A DNA stretch of 60,489 nucleotides, from the NCBI GenBank assembly GCA_047603125.1, contig JBLKOU010000002.1, positions 1 to 60,489 on the forward strand. The letters are read 5' to 3'. This document shows, one piece after another, positions 7,492-38,447 of the stretch. Both the position numbers and the translations under genes were made by a program. Each line of letters opens with the position of its first letter. The first letter of the stretch is position 1. The notes below the pieces were generated by a model, which was given only the letters and a program-made list of their open reading frames with translations, made no database searches and was not told where the DNA came from. The DNA is from Candidatus Woesearchaeota archaeon. GTDB lineage: Archaea > Nanobdellota > Nanobdellia > Woesearchaeales > DATGWN01.

Positions 7492-8936
7492 GTTTAGAAC
7501 AACAAAAAAAAACGATTGCACAATTGTATAAATCGGGAATTTTAGTTACGCCAAAAATACTTGCTTTAATTAAACAAGGACATTCATTTGAGCAAATACA
7601 AAACCAATTACAAGTGCAAGAAAAACAAATAACTGATTCAGATATTGATCCCTCTCATGTGAATGTTTCTATTATTCATAACTATCAAGATAATTTAAAA
7701 GAATATTCTGTTAATGATTTTATCAATCATTTTAGTGTTCGATTGCAAAAAATAACATCGTTTTTGCGCTCTCGTTCAGAATTAGAAGATTTGACGTCTA
7801 TTCGAAGAATTAGTCAAAAAGAACAAGGAGAGCAGGTGTCTATAATTGGGTATGTGAGTGATATTACACAAACAAAGAATGGTCATTTTTTATTAGAGAT
7901 GGAGGATAAAACTGGTTCTGTTCGTTGCTTGGTTTTGGATAGGGAAGAAAATAAGCATTTACTAGAGCAAGTAAAAGATGTTGTTTTAGATGATATTATC
8001 GGTATTCGGGGCGCTGTTTCTCAAGGGGATGATAGAGTGTTATTTGTAAATACTATAGTGACACCTGACATTCCTACAGTTGGTGGATTAAAAAAATGTG
8101 ACGATGATGTGAACGCTGTTTTTATTGGTGATTTACACATAGGTGCAAAATTATTTTTAGAAAAAGAGTTTCAAGCATTTCTTGATTGGTTGAATTTAAA
8201 ACATCCTGATCCTGTTGCAAATGAAGTTGCAAAAAAAGTGCGCTACGTTTTTGTTACTGGAGATATTATTGAGGGAATTGGTGTATATCCAAACCAAGAT
8301 CAAGATTTAGAAATAATGGGTGTTCGGGATCAATATGCGCGTGCAGCTGAGCTTTTTTCACAAATTCCAAAGCATATAAAGATTATACTAACACCGGGAA
8401 ATCACGATACGATGCGCCTTGCTGAGCCTCAACCTGCTATATATAAAGAATTTGCAAAGGATTTAGTAGAGCTTGAGAATGTTGTGAATGTGAGTTCACC
8501 CTCGACTGTTGCAATCCATAAATATGGAGATTTTCCAGGGTTTATAGTATTGGTTTATCATGGGAATTCGTTTTTTTATTATTTTGATGCGGTTAATAGT
8601 ATTCGTCAAGCTGGAGGAATAGAAAACCCGGATTTAGTAATGGAATTTTTACTCAAACGTCGCCATCTTGCACCAACACATGCGTCAGTCCAATATATTC
8701 CTGATGCGGATAGGGATGAGTTAATTATTGACCCAATTCCTGATTTGTTTGCAACAGGACATATTCACAAACATGTTGTTCGCAATTTCAAACACATTAC
8801 GCTTATGAATTGTTCTTGTTTTGTTGGTGTGACTGATTATCAGAAAAAACAAGGAATGGTTCCAGATTTAGCAAAAGTAACAGTTATTAATTTAAAGACG
8901 AGGGCAATTCAAACTATTGATTTTGAACATGTATAA
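7488..8936 (+). CDS. DNA polymerase II (PolD) small subunit DP1 (3'-5' exonuclease)
   Basis: Calcineurin-like phosphoesterase motifs GDLHIG, VTGDIIEG, PGNHD and ATGHIH, preceded by an OB-fold-like region. The ATG overlaps the orc1 stop (ATGA). Confidence 0.93.
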   Translation: MSLEQQKKTIAQLYKSGILVTPKILALIKQGHSFEQIQNQLQVQEKQITDSDIDPSHVNVSIIHNYQDNLKEYSVNDFINHFSVRLQKITSFLRSRSELEDLTSIRRISQKEQGEQVSIIGYVSDITQTKNGHFLLEMEDKTGSVRCLVLDREENKHLLEQVKDVVLDDIIGIRGAVSQGDDRVLFVNTIVTPDIPTVGGLKKCDDDVNAVFIGDLHIGAKLFLEKEFQAFLDWLNLKHPDPVANEVAKKVRYVFVTGDIIEGIGVYPNQDQDLEIMGVRDQYARAAELFSQIPKHIKIILTPGNHDTMRLAEPQPAIYKEFAKDLVELENVVNVSSPSTVAIHKYGDFPGFIVLVYHGNSFFYYFDAVNSIRQAGGIENPDLVMEFLLKRRHLAPTHASVQYIPDADRDELIIDPIPDLFATGHIHKHVVRNFKHITLMNCSCFVGVTDYQKKQGMVPDLAKVTVINLKTRAIQTIDFEHV

Positions 8937-19580: not shown

Positions 19581-21284
19581 ATGTTTGGTGAAAGAGTGAG
19601 ATTAAATACAAGAGCAGTGGATGATCGAAGCACGGGCGCACCGTTTGTTATTGTTTTAACGCTGCTGATTATTTTTTACATTTTATTTTTGCCTCCGGGA
19701 GATAGAGCAAGTTTGCTTGGAGAAAATGGGCCATCTGGTCCGGGAACGCCTTCGCAACCAAGTCAAGTTCGGCCGGGTGAATCCTTGGTGTCATTAGGTT
19801 CTGGAGATTCTTTTGTTTTTGAAGGGCCGGGTCGGGTTACAGTGCAAGCGCAAAATCAGTATGAGCATATGTTGTCTACTTTTGCATTGCGTGGTGAATA
19901 TGAGGCGCAGATTCTTGCTGAGCGTCAATCTGTGCTTGTTTCACGATCTTTATTTGAGCGCCAAGACCAAGTTTTACAATTTTCAATGGACTCTCCGCAC
20001 CAAAATGCACGAGCAGTTTTAGACTTTGGGGCAGGTTCTGGATTAGTCACAGTTACACATAATGAAAATACTGTGTTTCAAGGTCCCATAACACAACCTG
20101 GCGTTGTTATTGATTTGCCGCGATTATACGAGAAAAACGAACTTCGTGTTCAAGTAGAAAGTCCAGGTTTTGCTTTCTGGACAAAAAATCAATATCCGCT
20201 TCGATTTATGCGCGTGCAAGCCGATGTTTTGGAGCAATCAACTTTGGATGCTTCCCAATCATTTAGTCTTCGTCCTATTGAAATTCAGAATTTAAATTCT
20301 GCCCGATTACGATTCTTTGCAGAGTGTCAATCCGATGTTGGCAAATTAACAGTTTATATTAATCAGAATCGAACATTTTCAAATGTTGTTGATTGTGGCA
20401 ATATTAATGTTATTAGCATTGCAAAGAGCAAACTTGTCTCTGGTCAAAATGTCATTGATTTTGAATTAGATTATGGAGTTGTATTGCTGGATCAAATTCG
20501 CGTATTAACTGATTTACATCGCGATGAAGGGTTGATGTATTATTTTGATTTGAATCCTGATTTATTTTTAGAAACATCTCGCACAACGGCGGTTTGTGGA
20601 GAAGTTGATGGTGTTTGTCCATCTGGCTGTAGTGCCCTTGTGGATAAAGACTGTTGCTTTGCAAATAACCCGAACGCATACTGGTGTCCAACACCAACAG
20701 CTTTATTATCTGATCGTTGTGTTGGTTTTGTTGATCAAACAAATGTTGATCGGTGTCCAAGTGGATATGAAGATAGACAAGGTCGAGTGCCAAGTGACTT
20801 TCGAGGAATATGCGGTGATAACAACGATGGTGTTTGTCCAGAAGGTTGTCTTCCTGAATATGATAAAGATTGTTGCTTTAAACAAGATGGATTTTGGTGT
20901 TCTGACATGCCTGTGGGCGGCGTGAGCAATGTGTGTATTCGTGAACTCACACAAGACACTTGCCCACTTTGTCCGAGTGGATATCGTGCACCACCTGGAA
21001 AATCAACACTCTCTTGTACTCCGGAATCTCGTTCATTAGTTGAAGATGATATTTCTCTGAAAACAGAATATCGTATTTTAGCTGAATTTCGTTTTGTTGA
21101 GGATGGTTCAAGAAACAACGCAGACGTACAAGTGAATGGACATACATTTACTTTCGATACGTATCGAGGTTTGGCGCAGTATGATATTTCTCGTTTTGTA
21201 AACGATTATACGAATTATTTACAAATTATTCCTCGTAGCGAATTCTCATTAGTGCAAACTCGAATTCGCGTAGAACGACGTTAA
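19581..21284 (+). CDS. Secreted or membrane-anchored protein with duplicated DGVCPxGC...DKDCCF cysteine motif
   Basis: N-terminal basic region plus hydrophobic helix (RSTGAPFVIVLTLLIIFYILF), then a P/G/S linker. Two copies of CG.x.DGVCP.GC...DKDCCF...WC are encoded at ~20587-20700 and ~20806-20915. Confidence 0.75.
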   Translation: MFGERVRLNTRAVDDRSTGAPFVIVLTLLIIFYILFLPPGDRASLLGENGPSGPGTPSQPSQVRPGESLVSLGSGDSFVFEGPGRVTVQAQNQYEHMLSTFALRGEYEAQILAERQSVLVSRSLFERQDQVLQFSMDSPHQNARAVLDFGAGSGLVTVTHNENTVFQGPITQPGVVIDLPRLYEKNELRVQVESPGFAFWTKNQYPLRFMRVQADVLEQSTLDASQSFSLRPIEIQNLNSARLRFFAECQSDVGKLTVYINQNRTFSNVVDCGNINVISIAKSKLVSGQNVIDFELDYGVVLLDQIRVLTDLHRDEGLMYYFDLNPDLFLETSRTTAVCGEVDGVCPSGCSALVDKDCCFANNPNAYWCPTPTALLSDRCVGFVDQTNVDRCPSGYEDRQGRVPSDFRGICGDNNDGVCPEGCLPEYDKDCCFKQDGFWCSDMPVGGVSNVCIRELTQDTCPLCPSGYRAPPGKSTLSCTPESRSLVEDDISLKTEYRILAEFRFVEDGSRNNADVQVNGHTFTFDTYRGLAQYDISRFVNDYTNYLQIIPRSEFSLVQTRIRVERR

Positions 21285-21285
21285 A

Positions 21286-23646
21286 ATGGTTTCCATAGGT
21301 GCTCCTGCAAAGAAAGTTTTGCCGTCAAATGTTTTGACATTTTTAATTCTCTATATTATTTTTCATTATATGGTTGATTTTATTTTATTAGAATTTGATA
21401 TGAGTTCTAGTAGTGGTATTTGGGCTAGGACATTGGCACACATTATTGTTGCTTGTGTTTTTGCAAATACGCTATTAGGAACAGGAGAGCATGCATCGCA
21501 GAAACCAAAAACGATGATGCTCATTGTGATTCTTCCGCTTTTAATCATGGGATTGTCGGGTGTGCTTCCTTTTCCTCCAATTGTGAATCCTCTTATTGCC
21601 ATGTCACTTCTAGTGATTGGATTATTAATTGCCCTACGTCAAAAAATAGAATTTGGTGTGGGAATTTTAATCACATTTCTTATTTCTTTGTATATTTTAC
21701 CATTACTTGGAAATTTTTTTGTTAATTTGCCTGTGCAAAATGTTGTTACTACCGGGCTTCATAATTTTCTCACGCCATTATTTATTTTACCGTGGTTTAT
21801 TTATGTTGTTTTTATACAAGGGTATGTCCCAACCACGGGGGGTGTAGTATTTTTAGGGATTGTTTATTTGGTGTTTATTGTCGTAAGTATTTTTTTCACC
21901 GCAAATGGTTTTACATTTGTTAGCGGATATGCTTCTCAAATAGATGATCAGCAGATGCAAACCTTTGTGAGTGGCGTTTCTACAATGCAAAATTTGACCA
22001 CGCAATTATTTAAGTTAGAAACGTATACAAATCTTTGGAATCAGACGCAAACAAGATTTGATGAGGGAATAGATCGAGCAACTGGTCGAAACTTTGAAGC
22101 CAGAGTCGAGCAGGGGGCGGGACGCGAAGTTGGTCTTCGATTAGATTCGGTTCGTATTGCGCAAAACCAATTTGAACCTGATCAGCCAATATTACTTCAA
22201 TCTCGAATTGAAGCACAAACACTTAATGAGCCAATTTTAGCACATTTTTTTTGTAAAGCCTCAGCTCCACGTTTTGAGCGTTATGGGGAGGTTTTTCCTG
22301 AGCAGTTAACTGTGACGAGTTTTGCAAATCGCGGGCTTTCTTGTGAATTTCATCCCCTCCGTCATACACTTGAACCTTCGCGCTCATATGAGGGTATTCT
22401 TGGAGCGCGGTTTACATTTACAAGTCTTGCCTATGTCAATCGATATTTTGTTCGAGATGATATTTATACGCAACTTTCCTCTTCATCGCAGCGATTACGA
22501 CCTGAGCAAGCCTTTTATCAATCCTATGGAATTACGACTCCAAGAACAACGCCGTTTCAGACACGCGGGCCTATTAATTTAGGTATAACTGTTGATTCGG
22601 AAGTAATTCCTCTTGCGCCCGATGATCGTTTTTTGATGACTGCGTATATTGAAAATGGTCGTCGTTGGGATGGGAAAATCCATCGCATTCGTGAAGTATT
22701 ATTATCAATGCCAAGGGGTTTACAAATTCGTGAAGATGCAAATGGATTATCATGTACGGCAAGTGGTTTGGCGGGCAATTTTTCACGATTAACAGTATGT
22801 GAAGATTATACTGCATTTGAAGATGTTGATTGTCAAACATATACACACATTCGATTTTTACCTGAAACGGGCGAGTTAACTGATTCACAGCGTCAAAGCG
22901 TGCTCTTTTCTTGTCAAGTAGACGTTGCATCTGCAGATCAATTGCTTGCAAATGCGCCATTTTCGATGAGAAGCTTGCGCATGCGCGCATCATACGAGTA
23001 TGAAATTACGCAATCGCGTCGTTTCTCAGTTACTGATGGAGATGTAACAATTGTGGATGAGTCCGTTGAGAATCAACGATTTTGTAATGCGCATGAGCAT
23101 CCGTATCAACAGCACCCTGTTGGATCATACATGTTTAATTTTAATAATGAATTACGTGAGCAATATAATGAAGCCGTGCGTACAATTTTTGAAAAACCTT
23201 CATATGAGTCGGTTTTAAATGATGCAGCCTGTGTTGAGCGCAATTTGCTCCTTGGTCAAGCAACATATTTTTGGCCACAAACAAGTTCGGGCAGTTCGAT
23301 TGCAAGTCAGTATTATGGTCATTTTCGTGTAACGCCACGTATGCTTAGTGATTTGATTAATTTTGATTATCAAGATTATGCCTTGCTTGCTGATGAAGAC
23401 CCTCGAATTATTTTGCAAGCACAACACGAACAAATCGCAAAAGATTATGCTTCTGTTGTGGCGGATCTGTGTGACCCATTCTCCATAGAATGTCTTGTCG
23501 GGAAATTTAATTGTGGAATAGGGTTTGAGCTAGGTAATTTGAATTCCTGTTTTGATCGCTCATTCTGTCAATATTGCCATGATACATTGGTTCCACAAAT
23601 TTCCACAATTGTTGGTCAAGTGGATTACTTCTCTAGTCGGGAATAG
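21286..23646 (+). CDS. Fusion of a polytopic membrane domain (~6-7 TM) and a ~570-aa extracytoplasmic domain; unknown function
   Basis: 786-aa ORF that starts 1 nt after the stop of the previous gene. The first ~215 residues are a hydrophobic helix bundle and the rest is hydrophilic with scattered Cys. Confidence 0.75.
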   Translation: MVSIGAPAKKVLPSNVLTFLILYIIFHYMVDFILLEFDMSSSSGIWARTLAHIIVACVFANTLLGTGEHASQKPKTMMLIVILPLLIMGLSGVLPFPPIVNPLIAMSLLVIGLLIALRQKIEFGVGILITFLISLYILPLLGNFFVNLPVQNVVTTGLHNFLTPLFILPWFIYVVFIQGYVPTTGGVVFLGIVYLVFIVVSIFFTANGFTFVSGYASQIDDQQMQTFVSGVSTMQNLTTQLFKLETYTNLWNQTQTRFDEGIDRATGRNFEARVEQGAGREVGLRLDSVRIAQNQFEPDQPILLQSRIEAQTLNEPILAHFFCKASAPRFERYGEVFPEQLTVTSFANRGLSCEFHPLRHTLEPSRSYEGILGARFTFTSLAYVNRYFVRDDIYTQLSSSSQRLRPEQAFYQSYGITTPRTTPFQTRGPINLGITVDSEVIPLAPDDRFLMTAYIENGRRWDGKIHRIREVLLSMPRGLQIREDANGLSCTASGLAGNFSRLTVCEDYTAFEDVDCQTYTHIRFLPETGELTDSQRQSVLFSCQVDVASADQLLANAPFSMRSLRMRASYEYEITQSRRFSVTDGDVTIVDESVENQRFCNAHEHPYQQHPVGSYMFNFNNELREQYNEAVRTIFEKPSYESVLNDAACVERNLLLGQATYFWPQTSSGSSIASQYYGHFRVTPRMLSDLINFDYQDYALLADEDPRIILQAQHEQIAKDYASVVADLCDPFSIECLVGKFNCGIGFELGNLNSCFDRSFCQYCHDTLVPQISTIVGQVDYFSSRE

Positions 23647-23704
23647 TTTTTTCCAGTATCTTCGACTAGATTTGTATTTTTTTTTTGTGAACCCGTTTGA
23701 AGGT

Positions 23705-23838
23705 TAGTTAGCGGCAAAAGAAAAGCATAACTCCTTGGCGTAAAATCAAAAATCAGAGCGATTCATGCAGCTCTGATTTTGCAAACTTGACAGCTGTCGT
23801 GAAATCGCCGAGTTATGCGAAATTAATGTCGTCGACTA
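23705..23838 (+). repeat. Intergenic repeat family A, copy 2
   Basis: Matches 47-180 apart from 2 substitutions (gacaActg/gacaGctg and cgccAag/cgccGag), in the same orientation. Confidence 0.85.
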
Positions 23839-23896
23839 GGTATTAGATAGATTTTTAAATAATAACTTTAAAACAGAGTTATGCGTTTTTGGAATA

Positions 23897-24553
23897 TTGT
23901 CAGGTCCATTTTTTTTTTCAGAGAGATTTAATTCACAATTAGGGAATGCTATAATAGGCTCAACTTCGTTTTATTTGCTTCAATGGTTTGGTATTTTTGC
24001 AGCTTTGCCTATTGTTTATGGTATTTACTTAGTGGTACTTGAATTTATTCGTGGTAGTGGAGCTTGGTTTGGTCCTGATTTGGCACTCGTTTTATTATCT
24101 GCTTTTATAGGATTATTGGTGATGGTGTTTGCGATATTATTTGTATTTTTGATAGGATTATCTTTTTTGTGTAGTTTACTTTTAATTTATCCTAATTCAA
24201 AAATGTCATTTTCACAAGTTTTTGAAGTTCATATTCTTTCATCGACACCTTTATTCATAAGTATGTTTATTTCAATGATAACTCTTTTTTTGTCTTATTA
24301 TATTTCTTATTTATTTAAAATGTTGCCATATTATTTTTATTATTATTTTATACACATTGTTCCATTCTTTTTACTTGTTGGAGGAATTGTTATTTCTTTT
24401 TATTTACAGTATGGCGCTTGGAGGAAAGTATATTCTATCCCGATTAAATCTTTTTTATTTTCCCAAATACTTTTTAGTTTGACAATTTTTATTTTATTTG
24501 CAATTATTTTATATCTTTTATTAAATCCTTATATTTTTTATAGGTTTATTTAA
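23897..24553 (+). CDS. Polytopic membrane protein, unknown function
   Basis: 218-aa ORF (TTG start) that is almost entirely hydrophobic helices. Confidence 0.6.
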   Translation: MSGPFFFSERFNSQLGNAIIGSTSFYLLQWFGIFAALPIVYGIYLVVLEFIRGSGAWFGPDLALVLLSAFIGLLVMVFAILFVFLIGLSFLCSLLLIYPNSKMSFSQVFEVHILSSTPLFISMFISMITLFLSYYISYLFKMLPYYFYYYFIHIVPFFLLVGGIVISFYLQYGAWRKVYSIPIKSFLFSQILFSLTIFILFAIILYLLLNPYIFYRFI

Positions 24554-24656
24554 TCTAAAAATATTTTTAACGGGGTTTTCATTTTTTCTTATAAAATTAT
24601 TGGAAGGTGCTGCATCGATGACAAAACTTAAAAACTCGATTCGTTATTACTAGCGT

Positions 24657-25577
24657 ATGTATCGACATATACTTGTTTTGGTAGTTGTTTTGTTCTTAGT
24701 GAGCGCGTGTCAAGGCGGTCCTCGCGGAAGTGTGACAGATGATGATTTTCGCACTGGCACACAAGCAGTTGCTCTTAATTTTGAGCGAAATGCACCTCCA
24801 AATCAAATTATTTCAGGAGATACTTTTAGTGCTGCACTCACACTTGAGAATCGTGGAGCCGCAGATGTTCGTCGCGGTATTATTATTTTATCAACTGATG
24901 AGTCGATTCTTTCTTTATCTGGTCAGAATAGACAATCATTTTCCCTGGAAGGGAAATCACGGACGTATCCACGCGGCGAGAGTGATTTAATTGTTTTTGG
25001 TGGTCGTGCGCAACCGTTAACATCGCAAAGTCAGCGTCAAGATACACAACTAATTGCGACTGTTTGTTATGATTACCAAACATATGTGTTTGAAGATGTG
25101 TGTATTGATATGGATCCCTATAATCAAAACCCGCATCTTGATCGTATTTGCCAAACGCGAACAATTTCTCCAGGTGGTCGAGGAGGTCCAGTTGGTGTAC
25201 GTACTATTGATGTGCGATATGAACAACAAGATCAACGGTTCGTTCCAATTATTCAATTTGAAATAGCAAAATTAGGAAGTGGGTTTATTTATGAGCATGG
25301 TCGAAGTGATTCTTATTGCGGCTCACGCTCGTTTGGTGGTGAGGCGAATCTTGTGCAATTTGATGCGACACTTTCTGATATTCCTTTAGACTGTCAAGGA
25401 TTAACGCGAGGGGTTCATGGGTATTTTCAAGTAGAGTTGCGTGATGGTTCTGCGCGTGTTTCTTGTTTTTCAAATTCATATGATCGCCAGTTTGGTTCGT
25501 ATGTTGCGCCCTTATCTATAGATCTGCGTTATGGGCATACACATTCTGTTTCTCGTCAAGTTTCTATTGTACGATAA
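24657..25577 (+). CDS. Lipobox-containing secreted protein, paralog 1 of 3
   Basis: Signal peptide ending LVSAC. Shares RTGTQAVAL.F, LENRGAADV and the central CYDYQTYVFEDVC motif with the 26683 and 27649 products. Confidence 0.75.
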   Translation: MYRHILVLVVVLFLVSACQGGPRGSVTDDDFRTGTQAVALNFERNAPPNQIISGDTFSAALTLENRGAADVRRGIIILSTDESILSLSGQNRQSFSLEGKSRTYPRGESDLIVFGGRAQPLTSQSQRQDTQLIATVCYDYQTYVFEDVCIDMDPYNQNPHLDRICQTRTISPGGRGGPVGVRTIDVRYEQQDQRFVPIIQFEIAKLGSGFIYEHGRSDSYCGSRSFGGEANLVQFDATLSDIPLDCQGLTRGVHGYFQVELRDGSARVSCFSNSYDRQFGSYVAPLSIDLRYGHTHSVSRQVSIVR

Positions 25578-25608
25578 GTATATAAATTATGATAGCTTCC
25601 CCACATGT

Positions 25609-25842
25609 ATGGTCGCAAGACAACCAAGTTCGACATTACAAACCGTTGGAGCATTATTGGTTACTGTGATTTCTTCAGTAATCATGATAGTATTGAGTAT
25701 TTTGTACTTTATGCTCACAATTTGGGTTATTCGAGTAGGTGCATCATGGGCTGGCGCAGAAGCGGACGGAAACATGATTGTACTGACTGCAGGTATTGTT
25801 ACTGCAGCAATTTTGCTCGGTTCAGCTCTTCAAAGACGGTAA
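25609..25842 (+). CDS. Small two-TM membrane protein
   Basis: 77 aa from the ATG at 25609, with two hydrophobic helices. It is the internal part of ORF 25531..25842. Confidence 0.4.
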   Translation: MVARQPSSTLQTVGALLVTVISSVIMIVLSILYFMLTIWVIRVGASWAGAEADGNMIVLTAGIVTAAILLGSALQRR

Positions 25843-25863
25843 ATCTTTTTGTTTTTTCTTTTT

Positions 25864-26598
25864 TTAATTTAGAAAAGGGTCTGGATTGTTTTCAATGTTA
25901 TATTTTCCATTATTTGTTCGGTAATATTTTTTTTCTGAACCGACGGGACATCCTTCGGGGAATTTTGTTGTTGGATAGAGAAAATCATATCGATAGTGCA
26001 TTGGTCCCCAATATTGATTGTCTCCATGGATAGCTCCAGCTTTATTATATTCGCTTAGATTTGTTTGAATTTTTTGTAAAAACGGCGTAAGTCTGTTTTC
26101 TGTTATGATTGCTTGGTGGATGTAAATTGTTATGCCTTTTCCTTTTTGGTTTGGACTGCATTCTTTGAAGAATCGTTTTGTGGATAGCTTAACAATTAGT
26201 TGAAAATGTTCCAATGTTTGTTTCATGAGATTATATGCGAAGGCAACATCTTGAATATTTTCACAGAAAATGTGTATTTTCCAGCCAGAAAGTGGGAATT
26301 TATTTGATTGTATTGTAAAAAACATGTTATTTTCATTTTCTAGTTCTTGCAATACTCGCGATTGGAGGGGTTGCTTATCACAAAGATCAATGACTTTGAG
26401 TCGAAGACCATATATTCGGGGAATATAATTGGGTTCTCTTATTCTTGAGCGAACTTCTTGAATGTATTGAATGATTTTTTGTGCATCATAAGTAGTTTTT
26501 TGTGTTTGTATGGTTTTTAGTTGCTTTAGAAGTTCAAATAATTGCTCAAATGAGGTTGTTTCATAAACAGCGTCTGAAATAAGTTGTTCGTTTTGCAT
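25864..26598 (-). CDS. Hypothetical cytoplasmic protein
   Basis: 244-aa ORF on the opposite strand inside the surface-protein cluster. Motifs GWKIHIF and QKGKGITIYIH; no signal peptide. Confidence 0.6.
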   Translation of the reverse strand: MQNEQLISDAVYETTSFEQLFELLKQLKTIQTQKTTYDAQKIIQYIQEVRSRIREPNYIPRIYGLRLKVIDLCDKQPLQSRVLQELENENNMFFTIQSNKFPLSGWKIHIFCENIQDVAFAYNLMKQTLEHFQLIVKLSTKRFFKECSPNQKGKGITIYIHQAIITENRLTPFLQKIQTNLSEYNKAGAIHGDNQYWGPMHYRYDFLYPTTKFPEGCPVGSEKKYYRTNNGKYNIENNPDPFLN

Positions 26599-26650
26599 AT
26601 GTATGTATTAATGCTTGTTTCTATAAAAATATGCCTTTTTTACTTAACAA

Positions 26651-26660
26651 TATTTATAAA
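26651..26660 (+). promoter_or_regulatory. TATA box for the 26683 gene (leaderless geometry)
   Basis: tatttataaa is centred ~28 nt upstream of the ATG. Confidence 0.45.
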
Positions 26661-26682
26661 TCAGCGACGATAAAAAGAACCT

Positions 26683-27594
26683 ATGGTACATGAGCGCCAC
26701 TTCCATGTAGGATATGTAGTAATGTTTTTTCTTGCACTGTTATTATATTCGGGCTGTGCTGGTGGTGGCGTATCTGAGAGTTCATATAGGAGTGGTTCAC
26801 AAGGGATAGAACTTCGTTGGGCTCAGGGTAATCAATATGACTTTTTTGAAGGGGAGCCTGTTTCTCTTTTATTAGATGTGCGAAATCGTGGTTCTCATCC
26901 TGTGCAACAGCAAGATATGAAATTATTTTTAACCGGTGGTTTTGATCGAACGTATTTGCCCTTAGAGATTAATCAAGTGCCCGGAACGTTAGAAGGGAGA
27001 ACGCGTTTTGATCCTCGTGGAGATTTTGGTGAATTAATCACAATTGGCATGAATCAACCTGCACGTTTACCTGTTCATAGAAAAGAATTTGCGCAATCTG
27101 TTCATGTGACTGCATGTTATCGGTATAAAACACAGACATTTGCTTCTGCATGTGTCGATCCTGATCCATTTAATCGTCGGCTTGCAAGTAAGGCATGTCA
27201 ATTAAATGTGCGAGGCTATGGTGCGCAAGGACATCCAGTTGTTGTGAATAGAATTGATCCAGTTGTAGCGGGAAACGATATTCGCTATACGATTTATTTT
27301 TCTAATCAAGGCAGAGGAACTGTTTATTCGCCGTCTTTATCACTTGATGCTTGTGGACTTAATACGTACGAGCAGCGTTCGACAAATGTGGTAACGGCAA
27401 CAGCAATGCTGGGGAGTCGATCACTTCGCTGTGAACCTACGGGATTAGTTCGTTTGATTAATAATCAGGGGATGCTGGTCTGTACTTGTCAAAATTGTCT
27501 TGAGGATAATGCGTTTGAGACAACACTGACTGTGGAGCTCTCCTATATCTATGGGTCGTCAATTAGCACCAATATTCGCTTGTATAGTGACTAA
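26683..27594 (+). CDS. Lipobox-containing secreted protein, paralog 2 of 3
   Basis: Signal peptide ending LYSGC. Shares RSGSQGIEL, VRNRGSHPV and CYRYKTQTFASAC with the other two paralogs. Confidence 0.75.
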   Translation: MVHERHFHVGYVVMFFLALLLYSGCAGGGVSESSYRSGSQGIELRWAQGNQYDFFEGEPVSLLLDVRNRGSHPVQQQDMKLFLTGGFDRTYLPLEINQVPGTLEGRTRFDPRGDFGELITIGMNQPARLPVHRKEFAQSVHVTACYRYKTQTFASACVDPDPFNRRLASKACQLNVRGYGAQGHPVVVNRIDPVVAGNDIRYTIYFSNQGRGTVYSPSLSLDACGLNTYEQRSTNVVTATAMLGSRSLRCEPTGLVRLINNQGMLVCTCQNCLEDNAFETTLTVELSYIYGSSISTNIRLYSD

Positions 27595-27648
27595 ATAATA
27601 GATACATTTATAAAATAAAAACGCCAGTTTTTTCAATTAGGTGATATT

Positions 27649-28605
27649 ATGAGATATTTAGCTGTACTTTTTATCGTTTCGGCGCTTCTAGTCGCAGGTT
27701 GTGGCGATGGTTCGCGAGATTCAGGGTTTACAAACCCATTTATCGGAGGCTCTAAAGCGCTTGATTTACGATTTCAACCTGGTGCGCCAGTTGATGAAAT
27801 CCAAGATGCGGGTAATTTTCCGTTTGGCGTGACTGTTGAAGTAATCAATGTGGGTGAGAGTGACATTGATGTGAGTGATGGATATATCAAAATTGATGGG
27901 ATTAGCCCAGAAGACTTTGGTGTAACATCTGGTGACTTTCGTCAAGAATTGCCGCCAATGCGTGGTGCAACAAAAAGTGGTCAAGGTCAAATTATTAATG
28001 GTGATAGGGACGCAGTTTCCTTTGGTCCAATGACATATATGCCACGATTAGCTGGAAGTGTATCTTCAGTTACGGTTCGAGCACTTGCTTGTTATAATTA
28101 TGAAACGCGCGCAACAACAACGCTTTGTGTGAAATCCAATCCAATGGATCCAACAACAACGGGTGATGTTTGTGACGTGAGTGGTCCAAAAAGATATGCA
28201 AATAGTGCAGGTCCAATTCGTGTAGTTGATGTTGTACAAAACCCGTCCGGTCGTGATGGAATTCAAGTTGCATTGACTATACAGCCAACATCTGCAAATA
28301 ATAATTTTTATAGAGCCGACTCGGAATGTACGCGACAAGTCACAGATCCAAATATTCGACAAGTATATGTTGAAGTTGAACCAATCCTTGGTGGTCGATT
28401 ACACCCAACATGTCGTGGTTTTGTTGAAGGACAGGGATCTTCAGGATTTGTACGGTTTTCCTCTAATACTGATAAGCGAGAAATTTATTGTACTTTTGAT
28501 GTTTCGGATGTTGAGGTAGATGCAGAGGTGCAAATGGATTTGTCTATTAAATACCGTTACGAGGACATTATTTCAAAACCAATTCTTATTAGAAGTTCTA
28601 CATAG
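27649..28605 (+). CDS. Lipobox-containing secreted protein, paralog 3 of 3
   Basis: Signal peptide ending LVAGC, with VINVGESDI and CYNYETRATTTLC. An SD-like aggtga lies 8 nt upstream. Confidence 0.75.
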   Translation: MRYLAVLFIVSALLVAGCGDGSRDSGFTNPFIGGSKALDLRFQPGAPVDEIQDAGNFPFGVTVEVINVGESDIDVSDGYIKIDGISPEDFGVTSGDFRQELPPMRGATKSGQGQIINGDRDAVSFGPMTYMPRLAGSVSSVTVRALACYNYETRATTTLCVKSNPMDPTTTGDVCDVSGPKRYANSAGPIRVVDVVQNPSGRDGIQVALTIQPTSANNNFYRADSECTRQVTDPNIRQVYVEVEPILGGRLHPTCRGFVEGQGSSGFVRFSSNTDKREIYCTFDVSDVEVDAEVQMDLSIKYRYEDIISKPILIRSST

Positions 28606-28694: not shown

Positions 28695-29927
28695 TTAGTT
28701 TCTTGAAACTAATTCTTCATAACTGACGAATTTAATTGAATCATGTTTATCGTAGTTTTTTTCAGGAGTTACAAGTAATAAATTAAATTCTTTATGTTTT
28801 TTTTTAAAATCAAGCAATCCTTGAAACTCTCTTTCTTTAATGTTCGTTGTGTCAATTGTTACGTTTATTGCAAAATCTTTTGCGATGAAATCGACTTCGG
28901 TATTTTTTAGCCAATACATGATTTCTTCATTAGTTTGAGAAAGGCGTATTGCAACCAAGTTTTCAAATTTCATCCCTTTGTTTTGTTTCGTTGTATTGAT
29001 AATTTGAAAAAAACCGTTATCGGATATGTAATATTTTGGCTGAATATTTTTATCAAAACGTCTTTTATATGAGTAGGAAAAATGTTTTACTTGAATAAAA
29101 AGATACGCGTCTTTCATTGCATTTATGTAATTTTCAACAGATTCTTTATCAATTTTCAAAGCTTTTGCAAGGCTATGGAAACTAAATCTGCTGCCGCTAT
29201 TTTCAATTAAATACTTTGCAAGATTTTTTACATTTTCTCCATTTTTTATATTATGTCGTTGAATGACATCTTTAACCAAAATATCCTCAAAGTATTGTTC
29301 TAACAGAACTTTTTTTAATTTCGGACTTTGCTCCAAAACAACTTCAGGAAAACCCCCAAATAATTGAAATTCTTCTAACTGTGGTTTGAGGGTAAAATAT
29401 TTATATTCTTCAAAAGATAAAGGTTTTATTTCCAAAGTAATATTCCTTCCAGTCAAAAGTGTTGAGAGTTCTTTTGAGAGGAGGGATGCATTTGAACCCG
29501 AAACAATGAATTTAATTTCTTCATTTCGATCATATACTGTTCGTAAAAATCTCTCCCATTGTGATATAACTTGTATCTCATCTATGAAAAAATAAATTTT
29601 CTTATTGGAATTTATGTGTTGTTTATAGATTTCTAGTATCTTTTCAAATAGTTCTAATGAGTGGGAATTTCTTAATTCATAACTTTCAAGATTAATGTAG
29701 AGTAATTGTTCTTTTGCGACGTTTTGTTTAATCAATCGCTTCATTAACTGCTTCATCAAGGTCGATTTTCCGCAGCGTCTAACTCCTTTAAGAACTATGA
29801 TTTCTTTTCTCGGCAAGTATTCTTGAATTTCTTGTAAATAGAGTGAACGCTCTATACCTGCATCTTGTTCTTGATCCCATAAATTTTCTTTTTTTAGCGT
29901 TTTTAGAAGGGCAGCATCTGAAATCAT
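28695..29927 (-). CDS. AAA+ ATPase of the archaeal ATPase / DUF4143 type
   Basis: Walker A GVRRCGKST, Walker B FFIDEIQ and the typical C-terminal DUF4143-like region. Confidence 0.85.
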   Translation of the reverse strand: MISDAALLKTLKKENLWDQEQDAGIERSLYLQEIQEYLPRKEIIVLKGVRRCGKSTLMKQLMKRLIKQNVAKEQLLYINLESYELRNSHSLELFEKILEIYKQHINSNKKIYFFIDEIQVISQWERFLRTVYDRNEEIKFIVSGSNASLLSKELSTLLTGRNITLEIKPLSFEEYKYFTLKPQLEEFQLFGGFPEVVLEQSPKLKKVLLEQYFEDILVKDVIQRHNIKNGENVKNLAKYLIENSGSRFSFHSLAKALKIDKESVENYINAMKDAYLFIQVKHFSYSYKRRFDKNIQPKYYISDNGFFQIINTTKQNKGMKFENLVAIRLSQTNEEIMYWLKNTEVDFIAKDFAINVTIDTTNIKEREFQGLLDFKKKHKEFNLLLVTPEKNYDKHDSIKFVSYEELVSRN

Positions 29928-32713: not shown

Positions 32714-35700
32714 ATGGGTACTATTCGGGTGTGGGTTATCGTATTATTATTCTTTCTTACTTCTAGTGTAGTTTTTGCTGGTGGAGTTGGTTCAGTTTCT
32801 TTGAAACCATTTGATGAATGTACTGAGGATGATGATCGGTTAGCATTATTTTATGTTGATAATCGCACGAATGCGCATGTTTGGAGAGATTTGCCTGAAG
32901 GGGCAACGAGCGGGTATGCGGTTTGTTATACAATTCCTGAAGAATTACAAGGTGTAGATGGGTTATTTGAGAAAACAACTGATGGTAATCATTTCATTTT
33001 ACAATTAACTTCTGAAAGTGATGCACACGCGCATGGTCCAGGGGATTGGTTTAGTGTTAATGCGACGAATGAACTGGGTGCGACATTTTATATTCCTTCT
33101 GATTCACAAATAAAAGCGAATGGTGTAACATTAAGTGACACGTGGGTAGATATAGATGAGTTAACTGACGTTTATAATTTATTCGTGATGCGAAATGTAA
33201 TTTTTGCAAATGGGAATGTTCCTTTTTCTGGTAAAACTGCTACTGGAGCGTCTTTTACTTCGCTTGATTTTTCAGGTTCACAAACGTGGATTTTAGGTGC
33301 GACGGATTGGGTTGAGGTAGGTGACAATGCAAATTCACTTTCTAATTCTGTTCCTATTGCGTTTACTGGTTTTGATTGTCGAAGGGAGGGTGCGAATTAC
33401 GGTGATCTTGCAGACGGTGAACTTCGAATCGGTTATTTAGATTCAACAAATCATTTTTCTTTTGATGAAAATGGTGTATATTCGGTAGCTCAAATTATTT
33501 GTACAATTGAAGAACCTGTGCAAATTTGTACGGATGAACAAAAAGCTCAAGGGTTGTGGTATGAGCTGTTGGATGACTTTTCAACTTTACCTGAAGTGGG
33601 AAATAATGTAGCAGTTCGACATGGGACTAGAAGTGATTTATTTGAGACAAATCACCTTCATATAACATTTGATAAAAAAGAAGGATCTAACCCGGACTCG
33701 GTTTCACTTTCTGGTTTGGAAGCATCGGGGGATGGATATTTGGAATTTTATTATTTTCCAGAACAGTCTTTAGCTTTGGATGTAAAAATAAATGGTCAAA
33801 CATATTTTGTAGAGGATCACATAATTGGTTCACTTAATTTGCAGCGACAAGTTACTGGTTCTCCACGAATTGATAGGTGGAATAAAGTGCAGATTTTTGT
33901 TTCGGGAGGTGTTAATTCAATTGAATTCTTATTACCTGAAACGCCGTTAACAAATTTACAACCACAATATGTTTATAGAATAGACGGTTTGAGTTTTCAT
34001 CCTAATAGTGGTCGAAATTATTGCGGCAGCGATGGCGAGTTTAATGCAGAGATATCTGAAGATGCTTGTTCTGCAATTCCTGGTTTGACATGGACGGGCA
34101 ATAGATGTTGCGGGTTACCTGATGATCAAAATTATGTTGATGACAATGGTGTTTGTGTAAATGGTCGAGTTCTCATGGAAGAAAAACCAATAACGAAGGT
34201 AGCTTTTGATGTATTTTATGATGGAAAGTCGCGGCACGTTACGGATTTTTGTTTTGATAATTTGTGTCATATTTCCCTTCCGCGAATAGACGGAGAGGTC
34301 TCAACTATTTCTCGCCCGGGTTGGTTACGTTTTGAAGGAAATGGTGCAAATATTACTCATATTGAGTCCAATACAAAATTGACACTTGATCAAGACATGT
34401 TGTTATTGGTTGATTCTTGGAATTTATCTAAATCTTCTAAAGACGATGGCTGGATTAGAGATATAACTGAACGAGTCATGATTTATGGTTCATTATATGG
34501 GAGAGTAGCTGATTCCGAAGAGCCGGATCGTCACTTTCTTATTGGTGAATATCAATTTTCGGGAGTTGACGTTTATTTTCTAAATGAAGAAGAAGTCGAT
34601 GAACAAGTGGTAGCGGGTTCTGCAGTTCAGGCAAAACTTGCGTATTTGAGAAACAATGAGGCCTATATTTATACTCGCGGTACATTTACCGACCCAAAAT
34701 TTTTAATTGGTGATCAAGAGTGGATTTTAGAACAAGATTCTGTTCAAGATTTCCCTGAACCGATGAGTACATTTTTATCTAATTTTACTATAACGGAAAA
34801 AAATACTTATGTTGTTCCGTCTGATTTCTCACTACCGAATCAAAGACCGATAGATATTTTTTTTCAATATACAACTGAGGATGTAGAAGTGAAAACAATA
34901 CATTTACGGACGCTGGTTGGTTCGCCTACTTCTGGAACGCAAAATTATTTTGCGTTGGTGGAAGATGAGAATTTTATTGTTGTGAATCATACTGATGCAA
35001 ATTATTTGGGTACAAAAGTATTTTTTGTTTTTGGAGAAAACAATGAATTAATACGCACAAAAAGAACTGATAAAACGCACGAGATTGATTTGATTGGAAA
35101 TGAACAAGGTGCAAGAAAAGTTGTTGGTTTTTATTACGATCAATTTGGTAACCCAGTACAAGAAGTTTCGTTGGATTTAGATTCTGGTTCTGTGGAGGAA
35201 AGTTCTGATGATTCCGTTCAATTAGATACACCTATTGAAATTCGAGGGCGCGATGGAACATTTGCAAGATTTGAAGGAACAGAGAATAGTCGTCAAAGTT
35301 ATGATCCAAAACAACTTATAAGAGTAAGTTCAAATATAGCGCAATTTATTTATTCTTCTCGTGGTGGTAATTTAGCACTTCGTGCGTGTATTTCTGAGCC
35401 CGAGCAGTTTTCAGCGTTGAATCCTATGAAAATAGGTGGTGCTTGTCATATTGCATATTTAGATTATCGTTGTGTTCCTCCTGATGTTCTTCCAGGTGAC
35501 GGCACAGGTTTCTTTTTCCGCTATCCTGAGGGTAATGTCGTACCTGCTTCAAAGCCGGAAAATGATGGATCGTCAGCATATCAAATGCATTTTTCACAAG
35601 GTGTAGGAACTGCTTGTTGTGGGCAGGATTCTTGTTGGACGGGTGTGAGTTGTATTGATGATGGCGAAACGCTTGGTCGACACACATGTCTTGCAGGAGA

Positions 35701-36733
35701 GTGGGCACTTGCACAGTTGAAATTTAGTCCGAATGGAAAAGAGAGTAGTTTTTGTTCACAACCAAGTCAGTGTTATGTTGGTAGTTTTGCTGAAAGTGAC
35801 ATGTTTGAAAAAACGTCAACGGGCGGGTTACTTGCAAACAACTGTGTTGAAAATCAAACACGTTTTGGCGATTATATTTGTGCTGATGGTGGTTGGGCTT
35901 CAAGAGAATTTGAGCTGGCAAATTTATTGTTGCATATTGCAGACGTTGAGGACGATGACAAAACATTCCAACTTATTTGTGATACGCCTCGTAACATTTT
36001 AGATAGTATGGAAGTTACTTTGGAAGAATTTTCTGATTTAAGGGCGTATAATGCGTTAATAGTGGGAATGCAACAATCTAATAATGTGCTTTGTAGTAAT
36101 ACGCAAGAATGTATAAAAAAAGCATGTATTTTAAATACAAATCAAAATGAGGTTTCTTTTGGTGTCACAATCCCTGTTCCCTATAATGAATCTGCGGGAA
36201 TTTGGAATTTCTTAGGTTTGAGTTGTAGTGGAAGTGGTTTACAAAAATGTAGTTCCAATGTACTCGGGAATGAGTTTGCAATTCATTATTATCCGCCTCA
36301 ACAACAGTTGATTTTTTCACAGGTTTCTCAAGCGGGAAATATTTTTACACGCTTTATTGAAGCAATAAGAAACTTATTTAGATTACGCTCTGAATTTTTG
36401 ATCAACGATCTGGTGATGCCAAATATGGTTGTAAGTAAAACATATTTGCAGGGCGAGGGGAACGAAGTGTATTATTTTGCAACAGTGCGCGATGTATGGG
36501 ATGATGATTCTAAAAGTACAGACATGGAATTACAAGTTATTTCACACCGGGATTTTTCGAGTGTAGCTGAGGAAGTTGCTAAGCGTCTTACGGGCAATAA
36601 TATTGATTTATCCACGGAACCGGCTACTAACATGACTATCGTTGTCGCTAAATCGAATACTGCAAAAGAAACGATACTGACCCAATGGCCTCATTTCACT
36701 TGGCATCTTGATCCTAAAATTAATTTGGATTAA
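32714..36733 (+). CDS. Large secreted protein (1339 aa), first gene of the giant surface operon
   Basis: Sec-type signal MGTIRVWVIVLLFFLTSSVVFAGG, a long uninterrupted ORF, Cys clusters (e.g. CGSDGEFNAEISEDACSAIPGLTWTGNRCCG) and many N-x-S/T sequons. Confidence 0.85.
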   Translation: MGTIRVWVIVLLFFLTSSVVFAGGVGSVSLKPFDECTEDDDRLALFYVDNRTNAHVWRDLPEGATSGYAVCYTIPEELQGVDGLFEKTTDGNHFILQLTSESDAHAHGPGDWFSVNATNELGATFYIPSDSQIKANGVTLSDTWVDIDELTDVYNLFVMRNVIFANGNVPFSGKTATGASFTSLDFSGSQTWILGATDWVEVGDNANSLSNSVPIAFTGFDCRREGANYGDLADGELRIGYLDSTNHFSFDENGVYSVAQIICTIEEPVQICTDEQKAQGLWYELLDDFSTLPEVGNNVAVRHGTRSDLFETNHLHITFDKKEGSNPDSVSLSGLEASGDGYLEFYYFPEQSLALDVKINGQTYFVEDHIIGSLNLQRQVTGSPRIDRWNKVQIFVSGGVNSIEFLLPETPLTNLQPQYVYRIDGLSFHPNSGRNYCGSDGEFNAEISEDACSAIPGLTWTGNRCCGLPDDQNYVDDNGVCVNGRVLMEEKPITKVAFDVFYDGKSRHVTDFCFDNLCHISLPRIDGEVSTISRPGWLRFEGNGANITHIESNTKLTLDQDMLLLVDSWNLSKSSKDDGWIRDITERVMIYGSLYGRVADSEEPDRHFLIGEYQFSGVDVYFLNEEEVDEQVVAGSAVQAKLAYLRNNEAYIYTRGTFTDPKFLIGDQEWILEQDSVQDFPEPMSTFLSNFTITEKNTYVVPSDFSLPNQRPIDIFFQYTTEDVEVKTIHLRTLVGSPTSGTQNYFALVEDENFIVVNHTDANYLGTKVFFVFGENNELIRTKRTDKTHEIDLIGNEQGARKVVGFYYDQFGNPVQEVSLDLDSGSVEESSDDSVQLDTPIEIRGRDGTFARFEGTENSRQSYDPKQLIRVSSNIAQFIYSSRGGNLALRACISEPEQFSALNPMKIGGACHIAYLDYRCVPPDVLPGDGTGFFFRYPEGNVVPASKPENDGSSAYQMHFSQGVGTACCGQDSCWTGVSCIDDGETLGRHTCLAGEWALAQLKFSPNGKESSFCSQPSQCYVGSFAESDMFEKTSTGGLLANNCVENQTRFGDYICADGGWASREFELANLLLHIADVEDDDKTFQLICDTPRNILDSMEVTLEEFSDLRAYNALIVGMQQSNNVLCSNTQECIKKACILNTNQNEVSFGVTIPVPYNESAGIWNFLGLSCSGSGLQKCSSNVLGNEFAIHYYPPQQQLIFSQVSQAGNIFTRFIEAIRNLFRLRSEFLINDLVMPNMVVSKTYLQGEGNEVYYFATVRDVWDDDSKSTDMELQVISHRDFSSVAEEVAKRLTGNNIDLSTEPATNMTIVVAKSNTAKETILTQWPHFTWHLDPKINLD

Positions 36734-36738
36734 ATCAC

Positions 36739-38358
36739 ATGGCTCTTATGACTGCGCGTGGACAAGTAACTGTTTTTTTAATCATCGGCCTAATTGTTTT
36801 TATGGCATTTGCTTTGTTATTGACATATCAACCGCGAACATCGGTAGAAGATTTATCTCCTGCGGATGCAACGCCTGCAAGAATTGCAGTTGAGACATAT
36901 CTGCGCCAGTGTTTACAGGAAAGTGCGGACACTGCCACGAAAACTATTTTGTCTCAAGGAGGGTTGTGGTTTGAAAGTCAGGGTGGTTCGGATAATGATG
37001 AAAATTTTGATTTTGACAAACCTGTTGTGCTTAGACATGATGTCTTGCCACGTCATAGTCCTCCATATTATCCTCATAATTTAAGTGGTCGATATAATGC
37101 GACGCTAGAAGAGCTTTATATTCATTTTCATGAACAAGGATTATTATTATTTCCATTATTTGGAAGAATTGACCCGAGGGCTGAGTCGGGGAATTTTTAT
37201 TTGCCCCGTCTTTGTGATCTTGAAGGGCCGAATTGGCCTGGCCATACTGATCATGGACGAACGTGTGAGTCAGATGTCTATGATACAATTGGTTCTGTTT
37301 CTTCAATACAAAATAAAATTCAATCATATACGACTGGAATCTTTCAAAACTGTATTGAGAGTTTGAGTGGGCGGGATGCGCCCGTTGCACAATCTATTGC
37401 ACAAGAGAGTTTTATTCATGTTATTTATTCAAACGATGGGGTTGAATATGTGGCAAAGGTTCCAACACAGGTAAATATTTCAGATGTTACGCTTCGATTA
37501 AATGATATTTCCTATACGCAACCTCTGCGAATTAAACCGATGTATAATCTCATTTTTTTTGGTATGCGTGAGGAGACTATTAATGCGAGTTTTATGATTG
37601 AGAATGCAAGCCATTGGGATTCATTGATATATTGTAATTATAATGGAACAAATTCTCTATGTTTATTGCCTGGTTTACAAATAACGCGGGAGAATAAGAC
37701 TTATGAGGACAGACATTATGACTTAATAACAGTTGTAGACACACAAGTTCCGCGCAGAGTGTTTTCTGTTTATTTTGAAAATCGTCCGCCAATAATTGAG
37801 TATCCGTCATATTCGCCATTTGTTGTGCAAGCGGACGAGACATTTAATATAACGCCTCGTATTATTGATCCGGACGGCGATACTGTTTGGACTGTTTTTT
37901 CTCGATATAATGGGTCTGAATGGATAAACGACACTTTATTTCGTTTTAATGAATCCCAATTGTATGAAGAAGGGGATTATTCTTTAGGTTGCCCTGGGAA
38001 TGTGTGTGCGAATTACACTGTTGATGTTTGTGAATTTGCGCAGCTGGGGACGCATAATTTTCGCTTATATGCTGCTGATCGTGGGGGGCCGTATGACTTT
38101 TTTCCGATTGATATTACGGTAAAGCCGGCCGATAACCTGGATAGTTGCTCAGGCTCTGTGTGGGATGCTTGCGCAACAGGTATGAACTCTACTTGTGTTG
38201 AGGTGTTGGAGGGGTATGGTGTTGATTTTAATCCTGCTGATGGAATATTTGAAGGTTGTGATTTAGAAGAGTGTTTAGGTAATTCATGTACTTTGTGGGG
38301 AGGTACAGATGTTCCGTTTCCGCAGCACGGCCAAGCGCTTTTTAACAAATTTTGTTAG
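36739..38358 (+). CDS. Protein with class III (prepilin-like) signal peptide and a Cys-rich C-terminus (539 aa)
   Basis: Starts 5 nt after the previous stop. The N-terminus MALMTARGQVTVFLIIGLIVFMAFALLL is a basic region, then G/Q, then a ~20-residue hydrophobic helix. Confidence 0.8.
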   Translation: MALMTARGQVTVFLIIGLIVFMAFALLLTYQPRTSVEDLSPADATPARIAVETYLRQCLQESADTATKTILSQGGLWFESQGGSDNDENFDFDKPVVLRHDVLPRHSPPYYPHNLSGRYNATLEELYIHFHEQGLLLFPLFGRIDPRAESGNFYLPRLCDLEGPNWPGHTDHGRTCESDVYDTIGSVSSIQNKIQSYTTGIFQNCIESLSGRDAPVAQSIAQESFIHVIYSNDGVEYVAKVPTQVNISDVTLRLNDISYTQPLRIKPMYNLIFFGMREETINASFMIENASHWDSLIYCNYNGTNSLCLLPGLQITRENKTYEDRHYDLITVVDTQVPRRVFSVYFENRPPIIEYPSYSPFVVQADETFNITPRIIDPDGDTVWTVFSRYNGSEWINDTLFRFNESQLYEEGDYSLGCPGNVCANYTVDVCEFAQLGTHNFRLYAADRGGPYDFFPIDITVKPADNLDSCSGSVWDACATGMNSTCVEVLEGYGVDFNPADGIFEGCDLEECLGNSCTLWGGTDVPFPQHGQALFNKFC

Positions 38359-38447
38359 CCGTAATAATTCCTTTGCTTTCCCGTCGGGGAAAATAGAAAA
38401 CTATTTAAAAGAAACTAGGCATTTTTAAACACTAAGAGGGGTCAGCA

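Follow-up and report, generated by a model that had tools for sequence, protein, structure and literature searches.

A conserved five-gene module of membrane-tethered, beta-rich surface proteins in Woesearchaeota, a candidate envelope complex

What might a row of five genes for membrane-tethered proteins of three unclassified families do for the archaeon that carries it? Woesearchaeota are tiny, uncultured DPANN archaea and are among the most widespread uncultured archaea. In our literature search we found no described envelope protein of Woesearchaeota and no prior description of the operon considered here. The genes lie at positions 19581-28605 of a stretch of 60,489 nucleotides from a Candidatus Woesearchaeota archaeon (contig JBLKOU010000002.1 of assembly GCA_047603125.1), a stretch that we call the window. 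An initial annotation of its letters had taken the cluster for a dedicated envelope complex, possibly functioning with a pilus-like locus further downstream. Our analysis upheld the envelope set, on the alignment of its paralogs, an invariant cysteine and its synteny, and spoke against the partnership with the pilus-like locus. By sequence and gene order, genes A, B, P1, P2 and P3 are one vertically inherited operon of Woesearchaeota. We have modest confidence that their products form a constitutive, disulfide-rich, structural or adhesive envelope complex, one that probably binds glycan.

How is the cluster arranged? Every open reading frame assigned to it in the initial annotation was confirmed at its coordinates, and the five core genes are all on the forward strand and tightly spaced. 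Gene A (19581-21284) encodes a predicted bitopic surface protein of 567 amino acids and ends with the stop codon TAA at 21282-21284. Gene B (21286-23646, 786 amino acids) opens with an ATG at 21286, a single nucleotide further on, just as had been described. The start of B is uncertain because the public gene call is 758 amino acids long, fitting an alternative start at M29 (about 21370). The three P genes encode lipobox proteins: P1 (24657-25577, 306 amino acids, LVSA-C18), its paralog P2 (26683-27594, 303 amino acids, LYSG-C25) and P3 (27649-28605, 318 amino acids, LVAG-C18), the most divergent of the three.

The next question was how far this arrangement extends beyond the window. Related loci were gathered with an alignment of nine A sequences, taking one genome per species, which yielded 55 further loci. 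Hidden Markov models (HMMs) for A, for P and for an iteratively built B family were then used for a census of 56 non-redundant loci, and flanks of 10 kb and insertions were compared over 60 related loci. The closest relatives of the cluster proteins were annotated as Candidatus Woesearchaeota or Nanoarchaeota. The order A-B-P1-P2-P3 was found to be fixed across dozens of Woesearchaeota genomes, with one module locus per genome record, usually between the genes for Pelota and the RFC small subunit; Pelota was upstream in 39 of the 60 loci and the RFC small subunit downstream in 31. For example, one relative (L002) carried genes for a CCA-adding enzyme and Pelota and then all five genes in order, and in another (L004) the five were followed by an HD-domain gene, RFC and a PRC-barrel gene. 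A 6.6-kb Woesearchaeota contig (L001) held, in order, an A ortholog (E 1e-32, without the Cys-rich repeats described below), a protein with a transmembrane part plus an ectodomain, and two lipobox paralogs. Of the 53 loci with room for B, 46 had it immediately after A, and the gap in relatives was often at most 10 nucleotides or a 4-nucleotide overlap, a spacing compatible with translational coupling. A, B and the P genes are thus syntenic in most relatives, as the proposal of a dedicated set had demanded.

The P genes also keep an order among themselves. Among the 33 arrays uncut by a contig end, 27 had at least three P genes (24 with three, two with four and one with five). We assigned each P gene to the best-matching paralog of the window. 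The first gene was P1-like in all arrays with multiple P genes but one (L013, which starts P2-like with a low margin), and the last was P3-like in every array of at least three. A clean P1-P2-P3 series appeared in 21 arrays and P1-P1-P3 in 9, with low discrimination for the middle gene. Judged from these assignments, the triplication of P is ancient and its order fixed, which argues for non-redundant subunits.

What kind of proteins are they? The P proteins had been presented as three paralogs with signal peptides ending in a lipobox, and this description held throughout. They align significantly (P1-P2, E 1e-23; P1-P3, E 3e-10; P2-P3, E 1e-6), the signal peptides end in VSAC (P1), YSGC (P2) and VAGC (P3), and the shared sequence blocks listed in that description are present in all three. 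A search profile of six sequences was compared with representatives of clusters at 50% identity: 3,101 of them matched with E no higher than 0.001 and 1,365 with E no higher than 1e-30, most being about 300 amino acids long. The lipobox cysteine, which might have proved unconserved, was invariant in 143 of 143 aligned family members, and six further cysteines were invariant or nearly so. The canonical box [LVI][ASTVI][GAS]C was present in 93 of the 143 sequences and a relaxed box in 130, with the cysteine at median position 21, and a twin-arginine-like motif was seen in only 4. The lipobox pattern and the rarity of the twin-arginine motif therefore indicate Sec-type lipoprotein precursors. Weak matches to the lipoprotein attachment-site model LPAM_1 occurred in 8 of the 143. 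P1-P3 and their relatives resemble lipobox lipoproteins of the Lgt/AliA type in their short basic N-region, hydrophobic core and [LVI][ASTVI][GAS]-Cys box or a near variant. By contrast, their mature domain, with its two sandwiches and six conserved cysteines, matches no described lipoprotein family. The remark in the initial annotation that lipobox proteins in archaea are poorly understood is partly dated, since the AliA and AliB lipoprotein pathway was described in 2025 for Haloferax (PMC12462473). The same work predicted lipoproteins to be prevalent in DPANN and reported the AliA enzyme family there (PMC12462473).

An AlphaFold2 model of P1 (predicted local distance difference test, pLDDT, 93.9; predicted template modelling score, pTM, 0.86) was all-beta, with two beta-sandwich domains resembling immunoglobulin (Ig) or CARDB domains. 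Its fold matches in Foldseek were generic tandem Ig-like ones with TM-scores of about 0.24, headed by DUF11 and macroglobulin-like proteins; examples were complement macroglobulin (MG) domains, integrin legs, RbmA, the C-terminal domain of AglB and a viral DUF11 protein. A viral fold library likewise gave just generic beta-sandwich matches. The P N-terminal sandwich bears the signature (E/R)N.G....V, in which it is like the CARDB/DUF11 Ig-like surface domains. CARDB itself (PF07705) was found below threshold in 15 of the 143 P members (best E 0.007) and in none of the window proteins; no P member exceeded the Pfam cut-off, and the second domain and the cysteine pattern are specific to the family. 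The P profile had one insignificant match among PDB sequences (E 0.65). As a side observation, a secreted protein of 1446 amino acids (P0262, at 10001-14341 of L006) has a complete P-family domain at its C-terminal end (amino acids 1164-1444). It stands outside any A-B-P module and adjoins an M50 peptidase gene; its N-terminal 1160 amino acids contained no Pfam domain, and its genomic context was uninformative.

Protein A had been credited with a prepilin-like or anchor N-terminus, two copies of the motif DGVCPxGC(x5)DKDCCF and a third, partial copy, CPLCPSGY. It has a single N-terminal transmembrane helix, assigned to amino acids 19-37. The AlphaFold2 model (pLDDT 91.1) starts with this helix (at amino acids 20-35) and a disordered stalk (46-75), beyond which follow jelly-roll beta domains (77-336), a Cys-rich region (337-480) and a terminal beta-sandwich (486-566). 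The Cys-rich region contains two tandem repeats (20595-21017, forward strand; amino acids 339-410 and 411-479) of about 70 amino acids with 8-9 cysteines each. They are 41% identical (E 3e-13) and share the consensus CG..DG.CP.GC(x5)DKDCCF..WC..C..CP.GY. The two full motifs were confirmed as DGVCPSGCSALVDKDCCF at amino acids 343-360 and DGVCPEGCLPEYDKDCCF at 416-433. CPLCPSGY (amino acid 461) matches CPSGY (amino acid 392) of repeat 1 and is therefore the tail of repeat 2, not a third copy. We collected 106 A homologs, mostly about 560 amino acids long, of which nearly all named ones were from Woesearchaeota or Nanoarchaeota, and in these the repeat cysteines were nearly invariant. A long form (about 560 amino acids, with the two repeats) was seen in L002-L038 and a short form (about 400 amino acids, without them) in L001 and L039-L061. 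From this distribution, one clade either gained the repeats between two beta domains or lost them there.

The N-terminus of the A family consists of [KR][KR][GA][QE], a short Ala/Gly/Ser-rich spacer and then ...FYILFLPPxxRxxLL. The motif [KR][GA]Q was present in 61 of the 106 homologs, 5-10 residues before the hydrophobic core, and is similar to K[GA]Q/F, the class III signal found in pilin-like genes of the window itself. The A protein of the window lacks K[GA]Q (its N-terminus reads ...NTRAVDDRSTGAPF...), and within ...NTRAVDDRSTGAPFVIV... polar residues follow RA, a context that departs from the class III cleavage motif. A type IV pilin fold was also considered for A and rejected, as the model shows a transmembrane helix and a disordered stretch and then independent beta domains. 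The N-terminus is best read as a signal anchor: of the two options offered for it, the anchor is favoured over the prepilin, with the motif missing and no pilin fold in the model.

Which ligand would such a protein display its domains to? The Foldseek matches of A were BcsB (probability 1.0, E about 3e-6, TM-score about 0.15), PNGase F, the galactose-binding domain of GH35, a Cry toxin domain and SGBP-B. Below threshold, a few A-family members also had sequence matches to BcsB, to modules like carbohydrate-binding modules (CBMs) or to CBM_35; the BcsB family PF03170 was found in this way in 2 of 45 homologs (best E 9e-4). The A protein of the window had no Pfam match to PF03170, and a search of PDB sequences with the A profile returned nothing. 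Like BcsB, the periplasmic subunit of bacterial cellulose synthase, A is membrane-anchored and extracytoplasmic and has jelly-rolls of a carbohydrate-binding type. Unlike BcsB, it is anchored at the N-terminus and not the C-terminus, lacks the flavodoxin-like domains and has two Cys-rich repeats, and no glycosyltransferase was found near A in the window neighbourhood, in L002 or in L004. The stalk, the N-terminal anchor and the jelly-roll fold matches suggest that A, as modelled, is anchored at its N-terminus, stands on a stalk, probably binds glycan and is no pilin.

Protein B joins a polytopic membrane part to an external part, as had been proposed: hydropathy predicted seven transmembrane segments at amino acids 16-204 and none afterwards. 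The external part comprises a core ectodomain (about amino acids 266-585) and a variable Cys-rich C-terminal extension (586-786). An ortholog was found in L002 (E 3e-46), and the B HMM matched 52 open reading frames in related loci. Across 40 orthologs, the membrane part had 2-10 predicted helices (mode 5) and not one conserved residue, a pattern that speaks against an enzyme or a transporter. The core ectodomain kept a constant length of 255-342 amino acids in the same set, about the size of mature P, with conserved Cys, Gly and Pro, and the extension measured 12-538 amino acids and was often Cys-rich. The core aligned colinearly with almost the whole P profile (E 0.01), with A.F.F.T.AY...YFMD in B facing TACY.Y.T.A...VCIDP in P and a terminal Y.Y strand in both. 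As a control the P profile was shuffled in blocks, and one shuffle in 60 scored as high as the native profile; reversing the profile lowered the score from 26.9 to 14.0. Homology of the B ectodomain to the P family is no more than suggested by these profiles. Profile-profile comparisons of A with P and of A with B were not significant. Presenilin and G-protein-coupled receptor matches of the B profile in the PDB were discarded as spurious, being composition-driven matches of transmembrane segments.

Each of the five products thus has a predicted membrane tether, namely a lipobox in P1-P3, a polytopic bundle in B and a single N-terminal helix in A. Their ectodomains are beta-rich with conserved cysteines, and family scans detected no enzyme, ATPase or transporter domain in any of the five. 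How might they work together? P1-P3 would be exported by Sec and lipidated on their cysteine by AliA-type machinery. As non-redundant subunits they would join the ectodomain of B, which is about their size and may be homologous to them, and form a platform lying close against the outside of the cytoplasmic membrane. On its flexible stalk of about 30 residues, A would show its BcsB/CBM-like jelly-rolls and its two disulfide-knotted repeats outward and bind a glycan, which could belong to the cell's own envelope or to that of a partner or host cell. An assembled platform with an outward, glycan-binding A would make the overall function structural or adhesive, and the complex would be expressed constitutively and may serve in envelope scaffolding or in attachment.

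Several observations weigh against such a complex. A single P gene was detectable in 6 of the 33 complete arrays. In six loci (L016, L018, L019, L021, L022 and L036) A was detached from B and the P genes, with the P genes about 8 kb off on the opposite strand in L016 and L022. This detachment looks, from the gene maps, like a rearrangement splitting the operon; given the six split loci, strict co-transcription of the module is not universal among the mapped genomes. In addition, the HHalign probability for B and P was 4%, which indicates weak homology, and the Foldseek TM-scores were low (0.11-0.26), jelly-roll and Ig-like folds being generic.

Could the module instead be the surface layer (S-layer) of Woesearchaeota or its equivalent, with P1-P3 and the B anchor tiling a lipid-anchored hetero-oligomeric lattice and A as a glycan-binding accessory? 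Solved archaeal S-layer proteins, such as Haloferax csg and Sulfolobus SlaA/SlaB, are built of beta-sandwich domains; archaeal S-layer proteins and their anchors form arrays of such domains with lipid or transmembrane anchors and are constitutive parts of the envelope. The module likewise has subunits of beta-sandwich domains only, all membrane-tethered, and it is conserved across the sampled Woesearchaeota beside housekeeping genes. The fixed order of the P paralogs suggests a fixed stoichiometry, and our literature search brought up no S-layer protein of Woesearchaeota. However, at about 30 kDa the P proteins are small, and the module has five small products at an apparent 1:1 ratio, whereas a passage in PMC5744192 describes archaeal S-layers as usually one or two large, very abundant proteins. 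We regard an S-layer as rather unlikely. Surface glycan capture for nutrient uptake is a related idea, in which A and P would bind poly- or oligosaccharide for a transporter encoded elsewhere. SusE and SusF of Bacteroidetes are tandem beta-sandwich surface lipoproteins, and the Sulfolobus bindosome pairs sugar-binding proteins with class III signals with the Bas system. Both are membrane-tethered, glycan-binding beta-sandwich proteins, as A and P are predicted to be. The A jelly-rolls match CBMs, BcsB and SGBP-B, many A homologs share a class-III-like K[GA]Q with the bindosome proteins, and type IV pilus-like genes occur in the wider neighbourhood. On the other hand, no transporter, glycoside hydrolase or regulator was found in or beside the module in any locus, and the relatives share no adjacent gene for a transporter or an assembly ATPase. 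The class III motif is missing in the window's A and is spaced from the hydrophobic core in its family. The place among informational genes and the universal conservation are also more in keeping with housekeeping than with a role tied to a particular substrate, and we consider glycan capture for uptake unlikely.

The partnership with the downstream locus has to be weighed against the gene maps of relatives. Positions 32714-50700 of the window encode giant secreted proteins of 1339 and 3245 amino acids and five proteins with class III signals (K[GA]Q/F plus a hydrophobic stretch), one at 36739-38358 and four from genes in 48028-50700. A T2SSE ATPase and a T2SSF platform protein are encoded at 55787-60222, and together the two segments look, by sequence, like a type IV pilus-like system. 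If the module worked with it, A would be a prepilin-like subunit or a tip adhesin cut by prepilin peptidase. The K[GA]Q-type motif of many A homologs would fit, and four relatives do have T2SSE/F or pilin-like genes no more than 10 kb from the module. Yet these genes are upstream of A there (T2SSE/F homologs in L024, L028 and L038, pilin-like genes in L048), and in L024 and L028 genes for a RIO kinase, a KH-domain protein and topoisomerase VI intervene. Homologs of the proteins of 32714-48185 were found in none of the 60 related loci, in which the 10-kb flanks do not always reach so far, and unrelated genes follow P3 in L002 and L004. Therefore the proximity appears to reflect a shared chromosomal backbone rather than a functional unit. 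The 5-10 polar residues between motif and hydrophobic stretch in the A family, the missing motif in the window's A and its model without a pilin fold point the same way and make a pilus partnership very unlikely. A mobile element or provirus carrying, for example, viral attachment or fusion proteins was also weighed. Low-GC genes without relatives are interspersed in the cluster (C, an opposite-strand gene and an AAA_14 gene, all described below), and double-jelly-roll capsid proteins appear far down the list of A fold matches. The five core genes themselves have the local genomic GC of 0.39-0.42, and only the inserted genes look foreign; no PHROGs matches and no specific viral fold matches were found. 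Most relatives have the module at the same chromosomal position between Pelota and RFC, and this conserved synteny effectively refutes a mobile origin, which we hold to be extremely unlikely. A constitutive envelope complex of A, B and P1-P3 remains our preferred explanation.

What of the other genes in the cluster? The polytopic protein and the 77-amino-acid protein with two transmembrane segments that had been counted with the set are both present. Gene C (23897-24553, forward strand, TTG start) encodes 218 amino acids with six transmembrane segments, and the 77-amino-acid frame (25609-25842, forward strand) has two, in each case as predicted by hydropathy. Neither is conserved, so the module is confined to A, B and P1-P3. 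An opposite-strand gene for 244 amino acids (25864-26598, minus strand; no transmembrane segment), absent from the initial annotation, splits the cluster between P1 and P2, and a gene for an AAA_14/DUF4143 ATPase (28695-29927, minus strand) lies between P3 and the RFC small subunit. C, the 244-amino-acid gene and the ATPase gene had no homolog in any of the 60 related loci. Their GC (0.26, 0.33 and 0.29, respectively) compares with 0.39-0.42 in the core genes, C and the 244-amino-acid gene being 6-13 GC points lower, in the case of C partly because of its hydrophobic composition. The 77-amino-acid frame has a core-like GC (0.42) and is missing in the closest relative (L007), which lacks room for such a frame. 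From these comparisons, C, the 77-amino-acid frame, the 244-amino-acid gene and the ATPase gene look like local insertions outside the conserved module, lineage-specific ones in the case of C and the 244-amino-acid gene. As had been reported for the cluster, A, C and P1-P3 belong to no Pfam, NCBIfam or PHROGs family; none of the three databases assigned a family to the 244-amino-acid gene, B had sub-threshold matches only in all three, and so had the 77-amino-acid frame in Pfam and NCBIfam. The 244-amino-acid gene weakly resembles the N-terminal domain of class III lanthipeptide synthetases (RamC_N E 1e-4, LanKC E 3e-4, both sub-threshold). A repeat scan of the inserted segments gave only AT-rich chance matches. 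A promoter and terminator scan found no more than in shuffled sequence, with bacterial models that are not applicable to archaea.

The window, with a GC of 32-42%, contains archaeal informational genes and is therefore a chromosomal segment of an archaeon. They encode the large subunit DP2 of DNA polymerase D (PolD) with an intein (1356-5129, minus strand), Cdc6/Orc1 (6283-7491), the PolD small subunit DP1 (7488-8936), a PAN-like AAA ATPase, a CCA-adding enzyme, Pelota and the RFC small subunit. Since the cumulative GC skew is lowest at 4-6 kb, the AT-rich region between genes at 5880-6282 is a possible replication origin; scanning it for repeats revealed no clear origin-recognition boxes, only AT-rich chance matches. 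Further downstream, a gene for a RhuM-family protein (52213-53145, E 4.5e-100) adjoins one for deoxyhypusine synthase (53490-54485). Among the related records, several module-bearing metagenome-assembled genomes (L008, L009, L011, L024, L031 and others) are titled 'uncultured Methanosarcinales archaeon' or 'Acidobacteriota bacterium', and the P-family protein P0090 is named just 'bacterium'; these are probably taxonomic mislabels.

What does the module mean for Woesearchaeota? Its proteins have common folds, and lipobox proteins as such are familiar; the three families are without a Pfam or NCBIfam model and, in PDB sequence searches, without a solved relative. Two of them, A and P, now have structure models of high confidence. 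With one locus per genome record beside housekeeping genes, the five products are leading candidates for core envelope or attachment components of these archaea, and the strictly conserved lipobox provides a defined set of DPANN substrates for the archaeal lipoprotein pathway (AliA/AliB). A bolder and improbable extension is that a single two-sandwich module has diverged into four copies, P1-P3 and the B ectodomain, which together with the glycan-binding A form the main surface layer of Woesearchaeota. If true, this envelope would be a lipoprotein-based hetero-oligomer and not a classical S-layer of one or two proteins, and it might also be the interface to host cells. A role in host contact or in a surface layer would turn these proteins into targets for antibodies, tags and cryo-electron tomography in organisms not yet grown. 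The operon, whose function we infer, offers a promising way into the study of the Woesearchaeota cell envelope.

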